64,000 nucleotides of DNA, taken from Haliea sp. (lineage in GTDB: Bacteria > Pseudomonadota > Gammaproteobacteria > Pseudomonadales > Halieaceae). The stretch covers positions 5,640-69,639 of the forward strand of contig JAHEBL010000007.1 of assembly GCA_024642265.1 (NCBI GenBank). Direction: 5' to 3'. Shown piece by piece: positions 42,389 through 57,685 of the stretch; within the stretch, counting starts at the first letter, position 1; each line of letters opens with the position of its first letter. A program made the position numbers and the translations under genes. The notes beneath the pieces are model-generated. The model worked only from the letters and a program-made list of their open reading frames with translations, made no database searches and had not been told where the DNA came from.

Positions 42389-43264
42389 TCAGGCATCCGG
42401 ACGGTTGTCGAACTGCGGTGGTTCCGGTGGGTCGAACAGGCCGAAACTCAATTTGTTGACCCAGGAGCGCTGCAGGCCGTCGAGGGTGTAGACGCTCTGG
42501 AATTCACCGTTTTTGTCCAGTGAGTAATGATCCGGATAGTTCAGCGCCAGTACGGCGATGGTCTCCCGGGCCAGGTCATCGTAACCGAGCAGAATGTAGC
42601 CCTGTGCCATGACCGCCAGCCCGTCGGCTACCGCCGGCGTATGCTGGAAATTCTCCACCACGTAAGCCCCGCGATTGGTGGCGGCCAGGTAGGCGCCGCG
42701 ACGGAAATAGTAGTTGGCCACAGTAATTTCATGGCGGGCCAGCAGATTGCGCAGGTAGACCATCCGGGCCCGGGCGTCAGCCGCGTAGGGACTGGCCGGG
42801 TAGCGGGACACCAGCTGGGCGAATTCGCTGAAGGCTGCCTTGGCCTGGCTGGTGTCGCGCTCGGAGCGGTCCGTGGGAATAAAGCGGTCGAAGATGTCCT
42901 CGGTCCCGGTATAGGCGGCGAGTCCCTTCATGTAATACGCGTAATCGACATTGGGATTCTGGGGGTGGAGGCGGATAAACCTGTCCGCGGCCTCCACAGC
43001 AGCCTCGTGCTCGTAGGCCTGGTAATGGGCGTAAATCAGCTCGAGTTGCGCCTGCTCGGCATATTTTCCGAAAGGATAGCGCGATTCCAGCAGCTGCAGG
43101 GCGCGTACGCTCTCACTATAGTTGCCGTTTTGCAGGTATTCCTGTATCTGCTCGTACATCTGCTGCTCCCCGGTATCCGCCATTTCGGGAAGTTCGTCGT
43201 TGCTGGAGCAACCCCATAGAGCCAGGCTGAAGACTAGGAGCAGGATGTATTTCAATGATCTCAC
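42389..43264 (-). CDS. bamD: Outer-membrane protein assembly factor BamD (lipoprotein, TPR)
   Basis: Lipobox [11 protein letters not shown]|CSS followed by [47 protein letters not shown] chose the GTG (43264) or TTG (43267) start. The 405-aa ORF-track extension is rejected. Confidence 0.88.
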
Positions 43265-43364
43265 CAATTTGGAGTGGGGCCGGCGTGCTAAGATGCAGGC
43301 CGCAACACGGGTTGTAGCGGCGGTATTTAACCACAGGCGGCCGGGTGCATAAACAGGAAATATA

Positions 43365-44345
43365 ATGAAGGAAACCATAAAACTGTCGGCCGAGGTGCCG
43401 GACGAGCTGGACGGTGAACGCCTGGACCAGGCGGCAGCTGCCCTGTTCCCGGAATACTCCCGCTCCCGGCTCCAGACCTGGATCAAAAATGGTGAGTTGC
43501 GGGTCGGTGGCGAGCAACGCCGGCCGAAGGACAAGGTTGTAAGCGGGGATGTGCTGGTGGTTGCTGCGGAGCTGGTGAGGGAGGTTGCCTGGCAGGCACA
43601 GCCCATCGACCTGGAAATTGTCTATGAAGACGACAGCATCCTGGTGCTGAACAAGCCCGCGGGGCTGGTGGTGCACCCGGCTGCCGGCCACGCCGACGGC
43701 ACACTGGTCAACGCGCTGCTGGCGCATGCGCCGGAGCTGGCGCAGTTGCCCCGGGCAGGTATTGTGCACAGGTTGGATATGGAAACATCGGGAATTATGG
43801 TGGTGGCCCGCAGCCTGACTGCGCACCATCACCTGGTGGCCCAGTTGCAGTCTCGCACGGTAAAGCGTGAGTACTGCGCCGTCTGCATCGGTGCCATGAC
43901 AGGCGGCGGCACCGTGGACGCGCCCATGGGCAGGCACCCGAAACAGCGCAAGAAAATGGCGGTGCTGGCCGCCGGGGGCAAACCCGCCATAACCCACTAC
44001 CGGGTGACCCGCCGCTTTGCCCACCACACCCGCATTGCGGTCAGCCTGGAGACCGGGCGCACCCACCAGATCAGGGTCCACATGGCCTACCGGCACTACC
44101 CGCTGGTGGGCGACCCGGTGTACGGCGGCAGGCCGCGTATCCCCAAGGGCGCCTCCGGCGAGCTTATCGAGGCCTTGCGGCGTTTTCCGCGACAGGCACT
44201 GCATGCCCAGGTACTCGGTCTGATCCACCCGCAATCCGGTGAAGAGATGCGCTTTGAGTGCCCGCTGCCGGACGATATCGTCGGCCTGCTCGATATTCTC
44301 GAGCGGGAGGACCCGGTCACCCCCCATGAACGCCCCCTTTATTAG
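43365..44345 (+). CDS. rluD: 23S rRNA pseudouridine(1911/1915/1917) synthase RluD
   Basis: S4 domain ([31 protein letters not shown]) and catalytic [14 protein letters not shown]. Divergent from bamD, as in E. coli. Confidence 0.93.
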
Positions 44346-45096
44346 GCCCGATTGGCCTGCCCCGGCCAATATCCTGGCCATGACAACCCTGCGCTCGGGG
44401 GGCGAGAGCTTGCCACCGTATGAGAGCTTCAACCTGGCCTCCCACGTCGGGGATGGCGACCTGGCAGTGCTCGCCAACCGGGCCAGGCTGTCCCGCCTGC
44501 TGCCCCCGGGCACCCAGGTGCAATGGCTGACGCAGGTGCACGGCGCAGATGTGGTCGATGCCGCCGCCGCCGATACCGTCGCGGATGCGAGCTGGACCCG
44601 CAGCCCGGCCTGCGCCTGCGCGGTGCTGACGGCGGATTGCCTGCCGGTGCTGTTTTGTTCCCGCGAGGGAGATGCCGTTGCCGCGGCGCATGCGGGCTGG
44701 CGTGGTCTGCTCGACGGGGTGCTGGAAAATACCGTCGCGGCAATGGGGCTCGAGCCCCGCAGGATTATGGCCTGGCTGGGACCGGCCATCGGTCCGGCCG
44801 CATTTGAGGTGGGCGCGGAGGTAAGGGCGGCGTTCCTCGACGCAGCCCGGGTCGTGCAGCGGGCACAAACCGAAGCCTGCTTTGTCCCCTCGGCGGGCCG
44901 TCCCGGGCATTACCTCGCCGACCTGTACGCACTTGCCAGGCTGCGACTGGCCCCCCTCGGCCCGGACGGGGTGTTCGGGGGCGGCTTCTGTACATTTACC
45001 GAACAAGACCGTTACTTCTCCTACCGGCGGGATGGCCGCACCGGGCGTATGGCCAGCCTGATCCTCCTCCACAGCGGGTTTGGGTTTAGCCCTTAA
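44326..45096 (+). CDS. pgeF: Peptidoglycan editing factor PgeF (YfiH, laccase-domain protein)
   Basis: ILAMTTLRSGGESLPPYESFNLASHVGD...TADCLPVLF...AAAHAGWRG. The ATG at 44326 overlaps the rluD end by 20 nt. Confidence 0.88.
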   Translation: MNAPFIRPDWPAPANILAMTTLRSGGESLPPYESFNLASHVGDGDLAVLANRARLSRLLPPGTQVQWLTQVHGADVVDAAAADTVADASWTRSPACACAVLTADCLPVLFCSREGDAVAAAHAGWRGLLDGVLENTVAAMGLEPRRIMAWLGPAIGPAAFEVGAEVRAAFLDAARVVQRAQTEACFVPSAGRPGHYLADLYALARLRLAPLGPDGVFGGGFCTFTEQDRYFSYRRDGRTGRMASLILLHSGFGFSP

Positions 45097-48336: not shown

Positions 48337-48805
48337 TTATTGCCCCTGCCACCTAAAGTAACCCACTGGACCCGAGTAGGCAATCCAGTGTCCGCCCCGG
48401 TCCGGACTGTCCCGGGCTGGTTGACTTTGGGGCAGTTCATGCGAACAATAGGCGCGTCTTTCAGATGGCAACGGCTAACGTCGAGTACCCTCGATCTCTG
48501 GCCCACTGTCCCGATCCCATTATTCGGGTTCAGCTGTTTGTAAGTCCCGTAATCAACGTCGGCCGCACAGGCCGGGTTGAGGGCCAGACACTGCGCTATC
48601 CCGCAGGGCTACCGATACACGGGTGTTCGTGATCGTATATCCCCCAAGGAGCGTCGCTGGGGGTGTTCCCGGGCAGTGTGTCGAGCTTGAAGGGGTGGCG
48701 TCGCCAATCGAAGGCCTTTCCGGGCCGTTCAACAGCAGCGTCCACACATGTTTTCGGAATGTACCGGCGAGGGTTACGCGTCGGGCGTTTTATTATGGGA
48801 GATGT

Positions 48806-50554
48806 ATGGTGGAGTTGTTATCTGGTGGCGAGATGATCGCCCGCGCGTTGGAAGATGAGGGGGTCGAATACATATTCGGCTATCCGGGCGGCGCTGTTCT
48901 GCATATTTATGATGCCCTGTTCAAGGACTGCAAGGTGCCCCATGTCCTGGTGCGGCACGAGCAGGCGGCCACTCACGCGGCCGACGGCTATGCCCGGGCC
49001 ACCGGCAAGCCTGGTGTGGTGCTGGTCACCTCCGGCCCCGGCGCCACCAATGCCATTACCGGCATTGCCACTGCCTACATGGATTCCATTCCCATGGTGG
49101 TATTTTCCGGCCAGGTGCAGAGCCACCTGATCGGGGAAGATGCCTTCCAGGAAACCGATATGATCGGTATCTCGCGCCCTATCGTGAAGCACAGCTTCAT
49201 GGTCAAGAAGGCCGAGGATATCCCGGTGATGATCAAGAAAGCGTTTCATATCGCTGCCACCGGGCGTCCCGGGCCGGTCGTCATCGATATTCCCAAGGAC
49301 ATCACCCGCCCGGATGAGAAATTTGAATACCACTACCCGCGCTCGGTGAAGATGCGTTCCTACGCACCTGCCCAGCGCGGCCATACGGGCCAGATCAAGA
49401 AAGCGGCGAAACTGCTGGTGTCTGCCAAACGGCCCATCATTTACGCCGGCGGTGGGGTGATCCAGGGGGAGGGCAGTGATTTGCTGACCCGCCTGGCAAG
49501 GGAATTGAACTACCCGGTAACCAATACACTGATGGGGCTCGGCGCCTTCCCGGCAACGGACAGGCAGTTTCTCGGTATGCTGGGAATGCACGGTTTTTAT
49601 GAAGCCAATATGGCGATGCACCACAGTGATGTCATCCTTGCCGTAGGTGCCCGCTTCGACGACCGGGTGACCAATACCGTGAGCAAATTCTGCCCGGGCG
49701 CCAAGATTATTCACGTGGATGTTGATCCCGCGTCAATTTCGAAGACCGTGCCTGCCGATATACCCATCGTCGGGCCGGTGCAGGCGGTGCTTGAGGAGCT
49801 TCTTGCCCAGCTCGCGACTATCCGTGAGAAGGAGAGCGATCTGCCCGACCAGGGCGCACTGGAGCGCTGGTGGAAACAGATTGATGAGTGGCGCGGCAAG
49901 CATGGCCTGTGGACAGGTCGTCGCTATGGCGAAAGCAAGATGATCATGCCGCAACAGGTTATCGAAAGCCTTTACCGGGTTACCGACGGCGACGCCTACG
50001 TGACCTCGGACGTCGGCCAGCACCAGATGTTCGCGGCCCAGTACTACCGGTTTGACCAGCCGCGGCGCTGGATCAATTCAGGGGGGCTGGGAACCATGGG
50101 CTTCGGCCTGCCCGCCGCCATGGGGGTGCAGCTGGCCTTTCCGGACAAGGCGGTGGCCTGTGTCACCGGGGAAGGCAGTATCCAGATGAACATCCAGGAA
50201 CTTTCCACCTGTACCCAGTACAACACGCCGGTAAAGATCATCAACCTGCGCAACAATTACCTGGGTATGGTCAAGCAGTGGCAGGACATGCAGTACGAGG
50301 GGCGTTACGCCATGAGTACCTACGAGGATTCCCTGCCCGACTTCGTCAAGCTGATGGAGGCCTATGGACACGTTGGGATGCAGGTGACCCAATTGTCGGA
50401 GCTGGACGCAAAAATGGAAGAGGCCTTTGCCATGAAGGACAGACTGGTATTCCTCGATATCATCATCGACCCCATGGAGCATGTTTACCCCATGCACGTG
50501 GCACCCAACGGTTCGATGAAGGATATGTGGCTCAGTAAAAACGAGAGGACCTGA
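48806..50554 (+). CDS. ilvI: Acetolactate synthase (acetohydroxy-acid synthase) large subunit
   Basis: [38 protein letters not shown]... and the ThDP motif [18 protein letters not shown] 48806 follows GGGAGA. The 61-codon upstream extension in the ORF track is rejected. Confidence 0.95.
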
Positions 50555-51121: not shown

Positions 51122-52588
51122 TTAGTGGCCGCGGCGGGCTTCCATGCGCTTGAGCATGGTGCTCATGAAGCGGCGATAGAGATCCATGCCGAGGTACTTG
51201 TCCTCAACCCCCTTGTCCACGTTGGGGTTGTCGTTTACCTCGATCACGCAGCCCTTGCCATCCTTCTCCTTGAGGTCCACCCCGTAGAGGCTGTCGCCAA
51301 TAGGTTTGGTGGCTCTCAATGCGGTCTCGACGACGGAGTGCGGTACATCGGCAATGGGCAGGGTTTCGAACCCACCCGAATCCGTGCGGTTGCCGTGCCG
51401 GTAGATCTGCCAGTGATCCTTGACCATGAAGTACCTGCAGGCAAACAGTGGCTGGTTGTCCAGGACGCCGATACGCCAGTCGAAGTCGGTGTAAAGAAAT
51501 TCCTGTGCCAGCAGCAAGGTGGAGTGGCGGAACAGTTTTTTACAGATCTCCGCCAGCTGCTCGGCGTCCCTGGCTTTTTCCACACCCTTGGAAAACGCAC
51601 CGTCGGGAATCTTCACGACGATCGGAAAACCCAGCGTCTGTTCCAGCTCACGCAACTGCGCCGGTTGGTCCTTGTACAGCACTACCGTGCGTGGTGACGA
51701 AACCTTGTGAATCCTGAACAGGTCCGCCAGGTAGATCTTGTTGGTGCAGCGCAGGATTGAGTTGCTGTCGTCGATGGTTACCAGGCCCTCGTTTTCGGCC
51801 TTCTTGGCGAAGCGGTAGGTATAGTGATCTATGTTGGTGGTTGTGCGGATAAACAGGCCGTCGTATTCCGGCAGCCGCAGGTAATCCCGCTGGCGGATGA
51901 CATCGCAATCAATTCCCATCTCCTTGCCGGCCCGGATAAAGCGTTTCAAGGCCCCCTTGTCGGAAGGTGGCATGGCTTCTTCCGGGTCGCAAAGAATGGC
52001 CAGATCGTAGCGGGCCGCCTTTTTCTTGCGGCTTTTGCGCCAGACCTTGCGGCTGAATACGTCGAGGGCCGTGGCGAACATGTCCGCCTGCTCCTCGTTC
52101 AGCTGTTTGGGTGACCTTGACTTGAGGCTGGCTATTTCCCAGCGCTTGCGAAAGCGCAGAGTGATCTCGAGGATGGGGCAGGGAAAGGTCTCGAACAGCT
52201 TTTCGGCCAGGTCGTCGTAACGGTTGTCCTGTGCCTGTCCGAAAAAACTATGGACTATGACAGGCTGGTCGGGGTCGGCTTCCTGCAGGGATTTATAAAC
52301 CCCCTCGCCAAAATCATCGATATGGATGCGGTAGAGGGCGCGCTTGCTGAGGTCATTGAGCGTGCGCACCGAGGGTATGACATTGTGGCCGCGGGCCTCC
52401 GCCAGCAGGGAGCAGTAATAGCCTTCTGACAGATAATCGAAGTTGCGGCACAGATTGATGATGCGGGTCCTGGGCGCGGCCTGCAGATGGTTGCTGTTCA
52501 TGTAGTCGGTGAAGCTGATGACCTGCTCACTCGGGAAATAGGGTGCCCAGTCCTTCAGGCTATGGATGACAATGAGGGTTTGTGACAT
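51122..52588 (-). CDS. RimK-family ATP-grasp ligase with an N-terminal extension of about 190 aa
   Basis: From about residue 193, YDLAILCDPEE...GLFIRTTT...LGFPIVVKIPDGAFSKGVEKA...LAQEFLYTDFDWRIGVL...GCVIEVNDNPNV aligns with the RimK/ATP-grasp core. I chose ATG 52588 (MSQTLIVIH). Confidence 0.8.
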   Translation of the reverse strand: MSQTLIVIHSLKDWAPYFPSEQVISFTDYMNSNHLQAAPRTRIINLCRNFDYLSEGYYCSLLAEARGHNVIPSVRTLNDLSKRALYRIHIDDFGEGVYKSLQEADPDQPVIVHSFFGQAQDNRYDDLAEKLFETFPCPILEITLRFRKRWEIASLKSRSPKQLNEEQADMFATALDVFSRKVWRKSRKKKAARYDLAILCDPEEAMPPSDKGALKRFIRAGKEMGIDCDVIRQRDYLRLPEYDGLFIRTTTNIDHYTYRFAKKAENEGLVTIDDSNSILRCTNKIYLADLFRIHKVSSPRTVVLYKDQPAQLRELEQTLGFPIVVKIPDGAFSKGVEKARDAEQLAEICKKLFRHSTLLLAQEFLYTDFDWRIGVLDNQPLFACRYFMVKDHWQIYRHGNRTDSGGFETLPIADVPHSVVETALRATKPIGDSLYGVDLKEKDGKGCVIEVNDNPNVDKGVEDKYLGMDLYRRFMSTMLKRMEARRGH

Positions 52589-52803
52589 GAAACGAATCCT
52601 GGCGTTGAGCCCTGGCGCGGGGAGGTGGGAAGTGCGCAAGCAAGTATTTTACACCATTGGCTGGCAGTCAATTGCGTGTCGGGATATATTTCAACCGTTA
52701 AATTCGGAGCAGGCATGCACTCCCTTTCCACTATCTTACAGATCACCGGCCCCCGCGCCCGGTTCCCCGCTGTTTCCTCTCTGGCGAAATCCCGGGTCCT
52801 CCC

Positions 52804-53925
52804 GTGAGCAGTATTCGCAAAGCCGTCGCAACGGACATCGATGAGCTGCTGCGGCTGGAGGCGCTGGCGTTCCAGGGCGACAGGTTGAGCCGTCGCAGCT
52901 TCAAGCGCTGGCTGCGGCATTCCGGCTGTGTCTTCCTGGTAAGGGAAGAGGAGGGCGCGCTGGGTGGCTATATACTCGTGATCCTGCGCCGCGGCACCCG
53001 ACTTGCCAGGCTGTACTCGCTGGCGGTGGATCCGGCGCACCAGGGGCGCGGTATCGCTGCGGGGCTGATCGAGCGCGCCGAGCAGGCTGCCCGGGATGCG
53101 GGCGCGCTTTATATGCGGCTTGAGGTGGCGGGCAACAATGCCGCGGCGATCAACCTCTACCGGAAGCTCGGCTACACGCAGTTTGGCTTGTACCGGGACT
53201 ATTATGAAGACCACAGCGACGCCCTGCGGATGGAAAAATGTATACACCGCCTGGAGCCTGCCAGCGCCAACAGGGCCATTCCCTGGATATCGCAGACGAC
53301 TCCCTTCACCTGCGGGCCGGCATCCCTGATGATGGCGATGAACGGTCTCGACCCTGATTACTGCCCGAGTCCGCTGGAGGAAGTGCAAATCTGGCGCGAG
53401 GCCACGACGATATTCATGACCTCGGGACATGGCGGCTGCCACCCGGTGGGACTTGCGCTGGCAGCGACTGTCAGGGGTTTCAAGGCCGAGGTCTGGGTTA
53501 ACAAGAAGGGACCGCTGTTTCTGGATGGTGTGCGCGACCCCAACAAGAAACGGATCATGAGCCTGGTGCACGAGTCGTTCATCTCGCAGGCGAAAAAACA
53601 GAAGCTACCCGTGCGCTATGCGGACATAGACCAGGCCCGGCTGGCGGATTGTTACGCCAGGGGAGACAACGTGCTGATACTGATTTCCTCTTACCGCCTG
53701 GATAACCGCAAGGCGCCACACTGGGTTGTGCTCAGCGGCTATGATGAAAACTGCCTGTATTTTCACGACCCGGACCTGGAGGTTGGCCCCTATCTCAGCA
53801 TCGCAGAAGAGCATCGCGAGGCGATTGAGTGCCAGCACGTGCCGATTGCCCGTGCCGATTTCGCGTCCATGAGTTTATTCGGATCCAGCAGATTGCGCAC
53901 CGCCGTGATCCTGCGCAAGCGTTGA
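52804..53925 (+). CDS. Fusion protein: N-terminal GNAT (RimI-like) acetyltransferase plus a C-terminal papain-like C39-type peptidase domain
   Basis: GNAT motif A LAVDPAHQGRGIAAGLIERAE...LEVAGNNAAAINLYRKLGY. Then QTTPFTCGPASLMMAM (candidate Cys170) and APHWVVLSGYDENCLYFHDPD (candidate His306/Asp). GTG start with no obvious SD. Confidence 0.75.
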   Translation: MSSIRKAVATDIDELLRLEALAFQGDRLSRRSFKRWLRHSGCVFLVREEEGALGGYILVILRRGTRLARLYSLAVDPAHQGRGIAAGLIERAEQAARDAGALYMRLEVAGNNAAAINLYRKLGYTQFGLYRDYYEDHSDALRMEKCIHRLEPASANRAIPWISQTTPFTCGPASLMMAMNGLDPDYCPSPLEEVQIWREATTIFMTSGHGGCHPVGLALAATVRGFKAEVWVNKKGPLFLDGVRDPNKKRIMSLVHESFISQAKKQKLPVRYADIDQARLADCYARGDNVLILISSYRLDNRKAPHWVVLSGYDENCLYFHDPDLEVGPYLSIAEEHREAIECQHVPIARADFASMSLFGSSRLRTAVILRKR

Positions 53926-53971
53926 TATCAGAGGGAGATTCACACGGTGGGAAAAGTAATGGGTAAGGGCG

Positions 53972-55258
53972 ATGTCCGAACATAACGACAAGTACCTCGA
54001 GCTGGTAAGGGAGTTGTCCGACCGTATTGTCGAGGCCCAGCGACCCATTCGCATCCTCGATGGCATCAAGTGGTGCGGCAGCGTGCGCAGTGACTTTTTT
54101 GCCAGTGGCTGCAGGAATCTGCCGGCGGTCGATGCCGATTACTACCAGTGCAAGAACCCGCTGGAGTTTGATCCGGCCCAGGTGCGTGGTGTGTTCCACC
54201 AGATCGACCGGGATATTGCCCGCAAGCTTGGGCAGTTAAATCCGCTGGCGACGATCATGCGGCGCATTTGCCGGGAGTATCAGACTGTTGTGCGAATGCT
54301 GGAAGCCCGGGGTACCCCTGACTTTGGTACCTACTCGGAGGAACTGTACGGTTCGGCCTCTGACGTTTTCCATGCGGGGGACCCCACCCTTGCCGATCTC
54401 GGTACAACCATGGAAGAGACCCTGATAAACCTCCTTAAAAACCAGTCGATGGTTGAGTCCAGTAAGGATATTACGGCAGAAGAGGCGGTAGAGATGCTCA
54501 ACCAGCGACTGCTGGACGCCTTTCCGGATGCCGGTATCCGGGTGCTGCTGAATGACCAGATGACTGCCGACGCCGCGGCCGGGTCGGATTATCTGAAAAT
54601 CCGCAGCGACGCCATGTTCAATTCACTGGATATCGACGTACTGGAGGTGCACGAGGGCTGGGTGCACCTGGGTACTACCCTCAACGGCATGGCCCAGCCC
54701 TGGTGCACCTTTCTAGGCAAGGGGCCTCCGTCGTCCACCACCACCCAGGAAGGTCTTGCTGTATTGACCGAAATCCTGACCATGCGGTCCAGCCCGACGC
54801 GACTCTATCGCCTGGTAAACCGTGTGCGCGCGGTCACGCTCGCGGAGCAGGGGGCCGATTTTGTCGAGGTATTCGACTATCTGCGGGCTAATGAAATGTC
54901 GGATGACGACAGCTATGCCATCGCCGTGAGGATATTCCGTGGCAGTACCCCCGCCGGCCGGCCCTTTACCAAAGACCTGGCCTACATGCGGGGCTTTATA
55001 CAGACCTACAATTTCATGCGCCTGGCCATGAGTGAGGGGAGGCTGGATAACCTGCCGGTGCTGTTCTGCGGCAAGGTAACGCTGGAGGATGTAAAAACCT
55101 ACCGCATGCTCATGGACGAAGGCGTTGTCATGCCACCCAAGTTTTTGCCGCCACACTTCGCGGATATGAAAGGGCTCGCCACCTGGATGAGTTTTTCACG
55201 CTTTATCTCCAGCCTCAGTTTCGATCAACTGCAGGCGGATTACAGCGCGTTGCTGTAG
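53972..55258 (+). CDS. DUF1704 'QEGLA motif' protein (MATCAP-type putative metallocarboxypeptidase)
   Basis: HExxxH-type VHEGWVH (nt 54650-54667) and TTQEGLAVLTE (QEGLA at nt 54746-54760); 428 aa. It starts 46 nt downstream of the GNAT/C39 gene. Confidence 0.8.
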   Translation: MSEHNDKYLELVRELSDRIVEAQRPIRILDGIKWCGSVRSDFFASGCRNLPAVDADYYQCKNPLEFDPAQVRGVFHQIDRDIARKLGQLNPLATIMRRICREYQTVVRMLEARGTPDFGTYSEELYGSASDVFHAGDPTLADLGTTMEETLINLLKNQSMVESSKDITAEEAVEMLNQRLLDAFPDAGIRVLLNDQMTADAAAGSDYLKIRSDAMFNSLDIDVLEVHEGWVHLGTTLNGMAQPWCTFLGKGPPSSTTTQEGLAVLTEILTMRSSPTRLYRLVNRVRAVTLAEQGADFVEVFDYLRANEMSDDDSYAIAVRIFRGSTPAGRPFTKDLAYMRGFIQTYNFMRLAMSEGRLDNLPVLFCGKVTLEDVKTYRMLMDEGVVMPPKFLPPHFADMKGLATWMSFSRFISSLSFDQLQADYSALL

Positions 55259-55263
55259 GTCAC

Positions 55264-56430
55264 TCAGGACAGGCGGTCCCGGAAGTCCGCGTACCCGAAC
55301 TCGCGCACGATTTCCAGTTCATCCGTGATTGAGTTCCAGAGGGCAATTGACGGCAGCAGTGTGCCGTTGAAGGTCGACGTCTTGACCATGGTGTAGTGGG
55401 CCATATCCCCGAATACCAGGCGCTGGCCCACCCGCAGAGGCGCGCTGAAACTGTAGTCCCCGATAACGTCACCGGCCAGGCAAGTGAGGCCACCGAGCCG
55501 GTAGGTGTGCTCCAGCTCACCGGCCTCACCGGCGCCGAAGATATCGGGGCGATATGGCATCTCCAGGGTGTCGGGCATATGGCAGGTGGCGGAGGTGTCC
55601 AGAATCGCCTGGTTCATGCTGTTCCAGGTGAGGTCCAGGACCTCCGCGACCAGTACACCGCTGCCGATAGCCACGGCTTCGCCGGGCTCGAGGTATACCT
55701 GCACATCGTATTTTTCGCTGAACTGGCGAATTCGCGCGATCAGCTCGTCGAGCTGGTAGCCGGGCCGGCTGATGTGGTGGCCGCCGCCGAAGTTGATCCA
55801 TTCCATAGTGCCGATCAGGTGGCCGAATTTTTCCTCAACTGCATCCAGGGTGCGCTTGAGCGGTGGAAAATCCTGTTCGCAGAGAGTGTGAAAGTGCAGC
55901 CCGCTGATCCCCTCAAGTACGCCTTCATCCAGCTGGGACAGGGGTATGCCGAGCCGTGAGCCGGGCGCGCAGGGGTCATAGATCGGGACGGTGCCCTCGG
56001 AGTGCTCGGGGTTGATGCGCAAACCAAATTGCAGGTGGGGCCGGCGCGACCTCGCGGCCTCGATGTGGGGCTGGAAGCGGCTCCACTGGTTGCAGCTGTT
56101 GAAGACCACATGGTCCGCCAGCACCAGAATTTCCTCCAGGCTGGCTTCACTGTAGGCGGCGCTGAAGACGTGAACTTCGCCGCCATAGTGTTCGCTGCCC
56201 AGGCGGGCCTCGTGCAGCCCGCTGGAGCAGGTGCCGTCCAGGTAACGGGACACCAGTGGCGCAAGCCGCCACATTGAAAATGCCTTCAGTGCTGCCAGCA
56301 CCTTGGCGCCACTGGCATCAGCCACCTGGCGCAGGATCCGCAGATTGCGCTCGACAGCCACCTCGTCTACCACAAAACAGGGAGAGGGCAGCCGGTTAAG
56401 GTCCAGTTTACTGAAATCTGTGAATTGCAA
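55264..56430 (-). CDS. nspC: Carboxynorspermidine/carboxyspermidine decarboxylase
   Basis: LPSPCFVVDEVAVERNLRIL...ALKAFSMW...YLDGTCSSGLHEARLG... resembles Vibrio NspC; PLP-dependent decarboxylase fold. Confidence 0.9.
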   Translation of the reverse strand: MQFTDFSKLDLNRLPSPCFVVDEVAVERNLRILRQVADASGAKVLAALKAFSMWRLAPLVSRYLDGTCSSGLHEARLGSEHYGGEVHVFSAAYSEASLEEILVLADHVVFNSCNQWSRFQPHIEAARSRRPHLQFGLRINPEHSEGTVPIYDPCAPGSRLGIPLSQLDEGVLEGISGLHFHTLCEQDFPPLKRTLDAVEEKFGHLIGTMEWINFGGGHHISRPGYQLDELIARIRQFSEKYDVQVYLEPGEAVAIGSGVLVAEVLDLTWNSMNQAILDTSATCHMPDTLEMPYRPDIFGAGEAGELEHTYRLGGLTCLAGDVIGDYSFSAPLRVGQRLVFGDMAHYTMVKTSTFNGTLLPSIALWNSITDELEIVREFGYADFRDRLS

Positions 56431-56438
56431 AGCGCGGC

Positions 56439-57659
56439 CTACAGTTCCTTGCCTTTTACCAGATCCAGGCGGAAGCCCGGGTCCAGTTCCACCACCTTCC
56501 AGGGCAGGCCATAGCGGTTCATATCCTCCATGAATGGGTCCGGGTCACACTCTTCGATGTTCCATACGCCGGGCTCGCGCCAGTTGCCCTCGATGATCAT
56601 TTTCGCACCGATCATGGCCGGTACCCCGGTAGTGTAGGAAATAGCCTGGGACTGGACTTCGCGGTAACACTCCTGGTGGTCGCAGATATTGTAAAGGTAC
56701 ATCACACGTTCCTTGCCGTCCTTCAGGCCGCGCACAATGCAGCCAATGCAGGTCTTGCCTTTGGTGCGTGGACCGAGGCTGGACGGGTCGGGCAGCAGGC
56801 GGGCCAGAAACTGGATGGGGACAATCTGCTGCCCCTGGTACTCAACCGGCTCGATCCCTGTCATACCGACATTTTCAAGCACTTCGAGGTGTTTCAGGTA
56901 ATTATCGGAAAAACTCATCCAGAACTGGGCGCGGCGCAGGTCGGGGAAATTCTTGCTGAGGGATTCCAGCTCTTCATGGTACATGCGGTATATATTGAAA
57001 GCGCCGACATCCTCGGGACAGTCGAATCTTGCCATTTTAGACATCGGGGGGGTGGTGACGAACTCGCCGTTCTCCCAGTGGCGGCACTCCGCGCTGACTT
57101 CCCGAATATTGATTTCCGGGTTGAAATTGGTGGCAAACGGATAGCCGTGATCGCCGCCATTGACGTCGATTATGTCCAGCTCGTGTATCTCGTCAAAGTA
57201 GTGCTTGGCGAGGTAGGCGGTGAACATATTGGTGGCGCCGGGATCGAAACCGCTGCCAAGCAGGGCGATAAGCCCCGCCTGCTTGAACTTGTCCTGGTAT
57301 GCCCACTGCCACTTGTACTCGAATTTCGCGGTATCCCTTGGTTCGTAATTCGCTGTATCCAGATAGTTGACGCCGGCCTCTAGGCAGGCGTCCATTATCG
57401 AGAGGTCCTGGTAGGGCAGGGCGACATTGATAACCAGCTCCGGCTTTTCTTTTTTCAGGAGCGCTGCCAGCTCGGCCACATTGTCGGCGTCAACCTGGGC
57501 TGTGCGTACAGGGCGGCTCAACTGGGCCGCGATGGCCTGGCATTTTGCCTCGGTGCGGCTGGCAAGCACGATCTCCGGAAACACCTCGGGTAACTGTGCA
57601 CATTTGTGCGCGACCACGCCGCCGACGCCGCCAGCCCCGATAATCATTACTTTGGACAT
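56439..57659 (-). CDS. Carboxynorspermidine/carboxyspermidine synthase (saccharopine-dehydrogenase family, CANSDH/CASDH)
   Basis: MSKVMIIGAGGVGGVVAHKCAQ...ASRT...YLDTANYEP...KWQWAY...GFDPGATNMF...ATNFNPEINIRE parallels Vibrio CANSDH. Confidence 0.88.
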   Translation of the reverse strand: MSKVMIIGAGGVGGVVAHKCAQLPEVFPEIVLASRTEAKCQAIAAQLSRPVRTAQVDADNVAELAALLKKEKPELVINVALPYQDLSIMDACLEAGVNYLDTANYEPRDTAKFEYKWQWAYQDKFKQAGLIALLGSGFDPGATNMFTAYLAKHYFDEIHELDIIDVNGGDHGYPFATNFNPEINIREVSAECRHWENGEFVTTPPMSKMARFDCPEDVGAFNIYRMYHEELESLSKNFPDLRRAQFWMSFSDNYLKHLEVLENVGMTGIEPVEYQGQQIVPIQFLARLLPDPSSLGPRTKGKTCIGCIVRGLKDGKERVMYLYNICDHQECYREVQSQAISYTTGVPAMIGAKMIIEGNWREPGVWNIEECDPDPFMEDMNRYGLPWKVVELDPGFRLDLVKGKEL

Positions 57660-57685
57660 TAAAGCTTCCTTTATTGTGTCAACTG

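Follow-up and report, generated by a model that had tools for sequence, protein, structure and literature searches.

The question raised by this locus is whether three adjacent genes of Haliea sp. (contig JAHEBL010000007.1, assembly GCA_024642265.1) form one system that adds amino acids to the end of some acceptor and takes them off again. The genes occupy positions 51122 to 55258 of the window, i.e. the whole 64,000-nt stretch of DNA analysed here, to which all coordinates below refer unless another record is named. The initial annotation described them as a writer (an amino-acid ligase of the RimK type), an eraser (a carboxypeptidase) and an accessory fusion of an acetyltransferase with a cysteine peptidase. 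The conserved core is in fact the ligase together with the acetyltransferase-peptidase fusion (GNAT-C39), a widespread gene pair, while the carboxypeptidase is an optional and exchangeable third member, whose MATCAP form is restricted to some Halieaceae and two further contigs. It is probable that the system follows an add-and-trim logic in which the ligase and GNAT-C39 form the functional pair. The three open reading frames (ORFs) lie exactly where they had been placed, on the same strands, with 215 nt (52589-52803) between the divergent ligase and GNAT-C39 genes and 46 nt (53926-53971) between GNAT-C39 and the MATCAP gene on the same strand.

51122..52588, minus strand: ligase gene, 488 residues, RLAN + ATP-grasp amide ligase (Pfam)
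about 52070-52510, minus strand: RLAN domain of the ligase (PF14401)
about 52010-52054, minus strand: conserved basic linker of the ligase, SRKVWRKSRKKKAAR
about 51161-52003, minus strand: ATP-grasp module of the ligase (PF08443)
52804..53925, plus strand: GNAT-C39 gene, 373 residues, GNAT domain (residues about 1-150) and papain-fold DUF3335/C39-like cysteine peptidase domain (residues 159-370) (Pfam)
53311-53313, 53719-53721 and 53767-53769: predicted catalytic Cys170, His306 and Asp322 of GNAT-C39, which act with a predicted Gln164
53972..55258, plus strand: MATCAP/DUF1704 'QEGLA' zinc metallopeptidase gene, 428 residues (Pfam, TIGR02421)
54650-54667: HExxxH of the MATCAP protein, residues 227-232, within VHEGWVH, residues 226-232
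54746-54760: QEGLA of the MATCAP protein, residues 259-263, with Glu260 as the predicted third zinc ligand

Gene neighbourhoods were compared in two scans, one centred on MATCAP (80 genome loci, at least 58% identity) and one centred on the ligase (80 metagenome loci, 56-93% identical to a relative with 60% identity); 55 loci of the latter, with at least 2.6 kb upstream, form its informative subset. GNAT-C39 lies divergent from the ligase and within 2 kb of it in 47 of these 55 loci, so that the fusion, once regarded as an accessory, is a near-obligate partner of the ligase. The pair stands alone in 22 of the 47, and a DUF2817 gene sits between its two members in the remaining 25. The layout with DUF2817 and GNAT-C39 divergent from the ligase was also met in Hahellaceae, Porticoccaceae and one further lineage by annotated look-ups. 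Among alphaproteobacteria, Azospirillum brasilense and Tistrella mobilis carry GNAT-C39 followed by the ligase on the same strand, and in Azospirillum the two genes overlap at their stop and start codons; a 914-residue ORF upstream of the Azospirillum GNAT-C39 gene was discarded as the shadow of a glycogen phosphorylase gene on the opposite strand. The pair is therefore present in at least four gene orders in gamma- and alphaproteobacteria, and what lies beyond it varies from locus to locus (genes for beta-eliminating lyase, cation efflux, UvrB, MFS, TIR-ankyrin and AcrB, among others). A stand-alone GNAT gene adjoins the ligase in Aeromonas, and the ligase is alone in Pseudomonas aeruginosa (PA1345-type gene) and in Parahaliea, where GNAT-C39 is on another contig and no close MATCAP orthologue is among the matches listed.

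Several single neighbourhoods of the ligase were recorded as well. A RimO/MiaB-like gene (UPF0004 + radical SAM) lies directly downstream of it in one instance (L126:9631-10917), and a gene of the DUF155 (RMND1/Sif2) family follows it directly in two loci (L081:7520-8323 and L131:9527-10237). In P. aeruginosa pZYPA1927 (L166, PA1338-PA1347-like) an RLAN ligase with 48% identity is found by itself between genes for a short-chain dehydrogenase/reductase and a pyridoxal-phosphate aminotransferase, near ggt and the glutamate/aspartate transporter genes aatJQMP, and the content of this 'plasmid' looks chromosomal. No functional data on PA1345 were found in the literature.

All three genes occur together in 15 of the 80 MATCAP-centred loci. 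Thirteen have the gene order of the window; in two unclassified gammaproteobacterial contigs (L028 and L031) GNAT-C39 on the minus strand is divergent from a plus-strand ligase gene, which is followed by MATCAP after a gap of 72 nt. Because the triad persists in these 15 loci, in two orders and despite changing flanks, a functional link among the three genes is supported in this clade. Eight Haliea loci have GNAT-C39 followed by MATCAP beside speA, and a ligase gene is absent within 10 kb. About 56 of the 80 loci have neither partner in the fetched flanks, some of which are on short contigs, and their neighbours are unrelated. Solitary MATCAP genes belong to Methylococcales, Simiduia, HdN1 and some Halieaceae, and also to Aeromonas and Pseudoalteromonas; no ATP-grasp gene was found beside those of Aeromonas, Pseudoalteromonas, Methylobacter and Simiduia. 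The stand-alone orthologues of Methylococcales are 58-61% identical to the window protein. MATCAP is absent from all 80 ligase-centred loci.

The neighbours of the solitary Aeromonas gene are YbjN and thymidine kinase genes, and in 12 Methylococcaceae loci (e.g. L058:8715-12762) solitary MATCAP is part of a conserved block of CitMHS transporter, MATCAP, 137-residue ORF and DUF155 genes.

The third position is better described as a slot for hydrolases, which is taken by DUF2817/M14-like proteins in most lineages, by MATCAP or by N-formylglutamate amidohydrolase (FGase), and is empty in many loci. An alignment of DUF2817 with the M14 amidase MpaA takes in both the zinc motif GTHGxE and the carboxylate-binding motif DLNRNF. 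The FGase comes from Legionella adelaidensis (L169:41-3232), where the ligase gene overlaps that of a GCS2/YbdK-type carboxylate-amine ligase, which in turn overlaps the FGase gene; this variant, which stands in for both GNAT-C39 and the carboxypeptidase, is a single case confined to Legionella, as GCS2/FGase was not found beside the ligase in other loci. MATCAP, the M14-like proteins and FGase have unrelated folds and a common reaction, the hydrolysis of an amide with release of an amino acid that bears a free alpha-carboxylate, and this is the exact reverse of the formation of a RimK/GshB-type ATP-grasp product. Computationally, nothing supports the add-and-trim idea better than this replacement of one hydrolase by a non-homologous one in the same slot. 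Of the writer/eraser interpretation, the recurrence of the ligase with a hydrolase releasing a C-terminal amino acid is borne out, MATCAP itself being the dispensable, lineage-specific member.

Photobacterium damselae (NZ_CP070625.1) provides an independent coupling of an ATP-grasp ligase with MATCAP, in which a gene annotated as 'glutathione synthase' (557979-559007 of that record) overlaps a 660-residue QEGLA gene (558991-560973); at 1% versus 3% NaCl the former is up 38-fold and the latter 27-fold, and rimK and polyamine genes are co-induced at low salinity (PMC10308900). A further architecture, GST_N + GST_C + MATCAP, is seen in a 650-residue family representative (P0486).

The ligase itself contains an N-terminal RLAN domain (PF14401, E=3e-50; 170 bits, cut-off 25; aligned over 149 of the 150 profile positions) followed by a RimK-like ATP-grasp module (PF08443, E=3e-8), an architecture common to at least 7955 homologues. 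The ATG at 52588 is taken as its start, backed by homologues of 488 residues; a longer ORF beginning with TTG at 52639 is not required by them. No variation was seen at K326, E363, D438, E450 and N452 among 34 homologues, and thus the ATP-grasp lysine and the magnesium-binding D/E/N residues are kept. In the AlphaFold model the last 300 residues or so superpose on RimK, LysX, ArgX and Ddl with template-modelling (TM) scores of 0.77-0.84 (0.77-0.80 for RimK structures), and a fold search with the whole model returned ATP-grasp matches only. The scores for rimK_fam TIGR00768 (71.9 bits, cut-off 143.4) and the PRK10446 equivalog (32.1 bits, cut-off 331) are below threshold, and the NCBIfam matches include the small-molecule ligases of the RimK clade MptN and CofF, as well as LysX. 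At the position of the FRSN..HRGG loop of E. coli RimK the homologues have an invariant HWQIYRHG..SGG with an insertion, and instead of a RimK-type single module of about 300 residues the ligase has 488 residues with an added RLAN domain. It is not a true RimK, because it falls below the family cut-offs, the RimK substrate motif is replaced and the RLAN domain is added; the designation RimK-type is valid by fold and clade, and by these only. For the same reasons RpsF, which had been named as the first candidate target, is no better a candidate than many others.

An invariant motif, GYYCSLLAEARGH, lies within the RLAN domain, in a stretch modelled by AlphaFold with a predicted local distance difference test score (pLDDT) below 50. 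A search of the RLAN profile against PDB gave chance-level matches alone (E>0.3), none of them providing GYYCSLLAEARGH with a solved relative.

GNAT-C39 has an N-terminal GNAT domain (PF00583, E=6e-19; 68.9 bits, cut-off 20.7), whose acetyl-CoA motif (Q/R-x-x-G-x-G/A) takes the form QGRGIA, in which G81 and G83 are conserved. In a model of the protein with pLDDT 80.7, the closest structural matches of the domain are RimI, Ard1 and Naa, which are N-terminal acetyltransferases (TM 0.86-0.90); it scores 74.7 with the RimI equivalog, for which the cut-off is 86.4, and its matches to spermidine acetyltransferases are weak. The second domain belongs to DUF3335, 'Peptidase_C39 like' (PF11814, E=3e-85; 285 bits against a cut-off of 25), and 31 homologues all have Q164, C170, H306 and D322, with a papain-like spacing of six residues between the glutamine and the cysteine. 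It is not of the bacteriocin-processing C39 type, since no match was found to the true C39 family PF03412 (Peptidase_C39_2 alone matched, with 27.8 bits) and no transporter or conserved precursor was seen near the gene. GNAT-DUF3335 fusions are mentioned in PMC10318531, which cites Iyer et al. 2009 for them.

The MATCAP protein matches PF08014 nearly end to end (E=1e-133, 446 bits) and exceeds the cut-off of TIGR02421 'QEGLA' (360 bits against 338.65). The VHEGWVH and QEGLA motifs first noticed in it are present. Across 105 diverse representatives (28-56% identity) no change is seen at H227 or H232, E228 is found in 104 with one Asp, E260 is found in 102, and Q259, E260, G261 and A263 are each found in at least 100. 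The family profile aligns these motifs with HEIGTH and EEGLA of human MATCAP, although the match is weak (E=0.004), and a direct search of the window protein against PDB gave no match. HExxxH/EEGLA-type motifs provide the zinc ligands and the catalytic base in TMCP and MATCAP, both of which trim tubulin tails (PMC10499314), and the window protein is a predicted carboxypeptidase. An exact-sequence look-up of it returned no record; close homologues of the window proteins are named Halioglobus or Halieaceae, which assigns the window to a marine gammaproteobacterium of that family. Taken together, profile searches recovered the families anticipated for the three genes (RimK-like ATP-grasp, GNAT, C39-like DUF3335 and DUF1704/MATCAP), along with RLAN, and the HExxxH, Cys/His and ATP-grasp ligand residues are conserved among 105, 31 and 34 homologues, respectively. 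All three proteins are predicted from these residues to be catalytically intact.

The intergenic region between the ligase and GNAT-C39 genes contains the following elements.

52643..52690, both strands: two back-to-back sigma-70-like promoters (consensus scan)
52661-52666 and 52685-52690, plus strand: CTGGCA and TATATT, 18 nt apart
52671 down to 52643, minus strand: TTGACT, 17 nt, AATACT
52715..52807, plus strand: 30-codon upstream ORF (uORF), with GGAG at 52706-52709 and a TGA overlapping the GTG start of GNAT-C39

In the aligned ligase-GNAT-C39 intergenic regions of 14 triad loci, the sole invariant columns are AAGTATTT, CTGGCAGTCAAT and TATATT, blocks that would represent two overlapping back-to-back promoters, and no conserved small ORF was found. 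The uORF is kept in position and length (30-31 codons) in seven loci (L001, L003, L005, L024, L027, L135 and L142) and is absent from more distant triad loci and from other layouts. Its peptide is barely conserved beyond an M-x-S/P-L/F start, even between loci with enzyme identities of 84-93%. A role as a regulatory leader is probable, and the uORF is tentatively counted as a member of the system; it was rejected as a substrate, as its position is kept and its sequence is not. The earlier remark that no substrate gene is evident is confirmed on a larger scale, no conserved gene for a protein or peptide substrate having been found near the system in about 170 loci.

Downstream of the MATCAP gene lies a polyamine operon (55264..59611), listed here as context, whose genes are assigned from their ORFs and the Pfam families of orthologues.

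55264-56430, minus strand: nspC-like decarboxylase gene
56439-57659, minus strand: carboxynorspermidine-dehydrogenase-like (CANSDH) gene
57686-59611, minus strand: arginine decarboxylase gene speA
Order of the flanks: clpB, ilvIH, the triad, the nspC-like/CANSDH/speA operon, ilvC, ilvY

Polyamine biosynthetic genes adjoin the system in 19 loci of the Halieaceae-like clade, with MATCAP next to nspC in the window-type layout, GNAT-C39 divergent from speA in the Haliea-type layout, and GNAT-C39 divergent from speA with the ligase on another contig in the Parahaliea-type layout. In Parahaliea mediterranea (L084:1999-5708) the ligase is preceded by a gene of the histone deacetylase (HDAC)/acetylpolyamine-amidohydrolase family and a Pat-like gene (CoA-ligase + GNAT); this ligase has no GNAT-C39 neighbour, yet still abuts ilvH and ilvI. 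In four of the 19 loci, on independent contigs (L137, L138, L141 and L143; e.g. L143:4513-7413), the ligase is followed after 13-55 nt by same-strand aguA-like, deoxyhypusine/homospermidine-synthase-like (DHS-like) and speA2 genes, an operon that is non-homologous to the nspC/CANSDH/speA set. Polyamine genes are missing from at least 25 DUF2817-type loci and from the Azospirillum, Tistrella, Legionella and Pseudomonas loci. The occurrence of two non-homologous polyamine sets beside one system suggests more than simple inherited synteny. The operon may be functionally connected to the system, and the link is treated here as a clade-specific coupling through shared regulation or physiological purpose.

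As for the remaining ORFs, the longest ilvI ORF (48623-50554) starts at a GTG some 60 codons upstream of the conserved N-terminus of acetolactate synthase, and the true start is probably downstream of that GTG. Several long ORFs, e.g. 43116-44789 (within 43116-45096) and 52555-53571, both on the minus strand, are shadows of opposite-strand genes in a G+C-rich region.

What the system would do can be put together as a cycle of ligase and hydrolase, acting on a small cytoplasmic N-acetylated peptide or N-acyl amino acid rather than on a protein. In the first step the GNAT domain would acetylate the alpha-amine of an amino acid or short peptide, which the papain-like domain may cut or transfer beforehand. 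The ATP-grasp enzyme would then activate the free C-terminal carboxylate as an acyl-phosphate and add one or more amino acids, by clade probably acidic ones such as glutamate, and the MATCAP-type carboxypeptidase would take the added residues off again. The outcome would be control of the length or level of an N-blocked peptide with an extended C-terminus, made on an acceptor analogous to N-acetylaspartylglutamate (NAAG), N-acetylglutaminylglutamine amide (NAGGN) or glutathione; in Halieaceae the peptide level would be tied to polyamine (polycation) metabolism, and expression would proceed from the back-to-back promoters with the short leader ORF. A small-molecule or short-peptide substrate is proposed because the partner families (GCS2, FGase, GST, GshB-like and MpaA-like) act on small peptides, because the set of genes parallels that of the NAAG and NAGGN pathways, and because the system is embedded in metabolic operons. 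This full model is held tentatively, at somewhat less than an even chance. Several points weigh against it. The activities of all three enzymes are predicted ones, the nearest characterised relatives act on proteins (RimK on S6, LysX/ArgX on LysW, RimI/Naa on N-termini, MATCAP on tubulin), and the ligase lacks the RimK substrate motif, so that glutamate is no more than a candidate for the residue added. The role of the papain-like domain is a guess, the Legionella and GST-fusion contexts are single examples from diverged family members, inherited synteny could explain the polyamine link, which is limited to the Halieaceae-like clade, and the stand-alone Methylococcales orthologues suggest that MATCAP may have a substrate independent of the nearby pair.

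Unlikely, but to be taken seriously, is the editing of protein C-terminal tails, in which the ligase would extend a specific protein (S6 or another acidic-tailed one), MATCAP or the M14-like enzyme would trim it, and GNAT-C39 would acetylate the N-terminus of the target or of a partner after a C39-like cleavage. RimK, LysX and ArgX, which the ligase matches best in both structure and sequence, ligate onto protein C-termini, the GNAT domain is closest to the RimI, Ard1 and NatA-type protein N-terminal acetyltransferases, and the RLAN domain with its invariant GYYCSLLAEARGH and the conserved basic linker could dock a macromolecule. DUF155, whose eukaryotic relatives are associated with the mitoribosome, adjoins the ligase in L081 and L131 and is near stand-alone MATCAP in 12 loci. 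Tubulin tails are trimmed by MATCAP and TMCP (PMC10499314), and RimK with the RimB protease is a proven bacterial precedent for a writer and an eraser (PMC11957791). However, the ligase scores below the RimK family cut-offs with the substrate motif replaced, its clade includes small-molecule ligases (the MptN, CofF and LysX matches), no conserved candidate target gene is nearby, and the partners in variant loci (GCS2, FGase, the GST fusion and GshB-like) are of small-molecule families. The initial idea of a protein or peptide terminus as the target keeps the protein-modifying relatives on its side, while Legionella GCS2 and FGase, the GshB-like ligase beside a GST-fused MATCAP in Photobacterium and the polyamine contexts point to small molecules. 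A bacterial protein-tail 'code' worked by the RLAN ligase, GNAT-C39 and the exchangeable MATCAP or M14-like carboxypeptidases, with reversible C-terminal tagging as well as N-terminal processing and acetylation of a cytoplasmic protein (possibly a ribosomal protein or another polyamine-sensitive protein), is decidedly doubtful.

A different doubt concerns MATCAP, which, judged independently of the other readings, might be a mere neighbour, a stand-alone carboxypeptidase with its own substrate beside a unit of ligase and GNAT-C39. The solitary genes of about 56 of 80 loci (some on short contigs) and of Aeromonas and Pseudoalteromonas, its absence from the 80 ligase-centred loci, and Parahaliea, which keeps the pair with no close MATCAP orthologue among the matches listed, would all fit. 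It is nevertheless improbable, for the adjacency outlives three rearrangements (GNAT-C39-MATCAP by the ligase, ligase-MATCAP, and GNAT-C39-MATCAP by speA), the 46-nt same-strand gap suggests a single transcript, the slot is the same as that of DUF2817, and Photobacterium has a separate ATP-grasp/MATCAP operon.

Polyamine conjugation or homeostasis, with the ATP-grasp enzyme forming a carboxylate-polyamine amide like glutathionylspermidine synthetase, the GNAT domain acetylating polyamine amines, and the papain-like domain and zinc hydrolase reversing the amides, would account for the nspC, CANSDH and speA genes adjoining the system in the window, Haliea and Parahaliea types of layout, for the aguA-like, DHS-like and speA-like genes 13-55 nt after the ligase in L137, L138, L141 and L143, for the HDAC/acetylpolyamine-amidohydrolase-family gene before the Parahaliea ligase, and for the low-salt induction in Photobacterium of polyamine genes together with the ATP-grasp/QEGLA pair; the GNAT domain, too, weakly matches spermidine acetyltransferases. 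It is distinctly improbable all the same, since MATCAP and M14 enzymes need a leaving group with a free alpha-carboxylate and not a polyamine, the GNAT domain is far closer to RimI than to SpeG, polyamine genes are missing at the DUF2817-type, Azospirillum, Tistrella, Legionella and Pseudomonas loci, and the linkage may be family-level synteny.

Very improbable indeed is a ribosomal peptide pathway of the graspetide or microviridin type, with a uORF-encoded precursor, a C39-like cut, GNAT acetylation and ATP-grasp cross-linking or extension, for although microviridin clusters have a similar content (ATP-grasp ligases, a GNAT and a C39 peptidase), the ligase PsnB is at rank 50 among the fold matches of the window ligase and a translationally coupled 30-codon ORF precedes GNAT-C39, the uORF peptide is barely conserved where the enzymes are 84-93% identical, the uORF is missing from many triad loci and other layouts, and the intergenic alignment contains no conserved small ORF that could be a precursor gene.

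The small-peptide cycle of ligase and hydrolase remains the preferred reading, and its interest lies in the families that it brings together. The bacterial DUF1704/MATCAP family comprises 2039 cluster representatives at 50% identity and more than 5000 sequences under a name derived from a phenotype only, and RLAN ligases and GNAT-C39 fusions have thousands of uncharacterised members each; the conserved pair, the alternating slot and the polyamine wiring turn these annotation orphans into one testable system. If its substrate is a small peptide, the system would make a new N-acetylated peptide metabolite, possibly tied to polyamine or ionic homeostasis in marine bacteria. If it is a protein, this would be the second bacterial writer/eraser system for tail editing after RimK/RimB and likely a view of the prokaryotic roots of tubulin-code enzymes; a tail 'code', if real, would draw on the four or five enzyme families of the tubulin code and might be their prokaryotic source.

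The RLAN/GNAT-DUF3335 core has been noticed computationally before. The amidoligase survey of Iyer, Abhiman, Burroughs & Aravind 2009 (Mol Biosyst 5:1636), to which the Pfam RLAN family and the GNAT-DUF3335 fusion go back, is said to have described RLAN ligase neighbourhoods and the GNAT-papain-like fusion, and to have predicted a system for peptide synthesis or modification; it reportedly predates the recognition of DUF1704 as the MATCAP peptidase. The exchange of MATCAP with M14-like DUF2817 in one slot, the linkage to polyamine operons and the leader ORF appear to be new. No paper naming MATCAP together with ATP-grasp was found in the open-access literature searched, and nothing was found on an operon of RimK, polyamine and GNAT genes.

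Among known systems, the RimK-RimB(-RimA) system of Pseudomonas carries out the polyglutamylation of ribosomal protein S6 (PMC11957791, PMC4741518). The window system resembles it in having an ATP-grasp ligase of the same clade, with the RimK fold in its C-terminal 300 residues, and a dedicated peptidase that would remove the additions of the ligase. It differs in that the ligase carries the RLAN domain, is below the RimK cut-offs and has FRSN..HRGG replaced, and in that a GNAT is present. The RimABK operon consists of rimK, the retropepsin gene rimB and the EAL gene rimA, whereas the window system has papain-like and zinc peptidases and no EAL protein; no retropepsin or EAL ORF was found between 44 and 62 kb of the window, and the neighbours of the ligase are ilvH and GNAT-C39.

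NAAG is made and degraded by the GNAT NAT8L, the RimK-like ligases RIMKLA and RIMKLB and the carboxypeptidase GCPII, and NAGGN is made by bacterial Ngg, a fusion of GNAT and ATP-grasp. These pathways, which act on a small N-acetylated acidic peptide, share with the window system the combination of a GNAT, a RimK-clade ligase and a metallocarboxypeptidase. Unlike them, the window system has papain-like and RLAN domains, and none of its proteins is orthologous to theirs; GNAT-C39 scores 28.3 bits with Ngg TIGR03103 (cut-off 569), in the GNAT region only. RIMKLA is noted in PMC10550729.

The LysX/ArgX-LysW-LysK system, in which an ATP-grasp enzyme loads and a metallohydrolase releases at a protein C-terminus, gives the best superposition of the ligase (TM up to 0.84). 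The LysX equivalog score of the ligase is, however, 70 against a cut-off of 276, and unlike that system no locus contains genes for a LysW-like carrier or for the kinase, reductase and aminotransferase of the pathway.

The tubulin code is worked by TTL/TTLL ligases and by MATCAP/TMCP, CCP (M14) and vasohibin peptidases. The window system differs from it in that the ligase belongs to the RimK/LysX clade and not to TTL, bacteria have no tubulin substrate, human MATCAP is matched only weakly (profile E=0.004), and the bacterial enzymes are cytoplasmic and single-domain. The two nevertheless have in common an ATP-grasp ligase, a MATCAP-family HExxxH peptidase (PMC10499314 for MATCAP/TMCP), an M14-like alternative to it and a peptidase of the papain fold.

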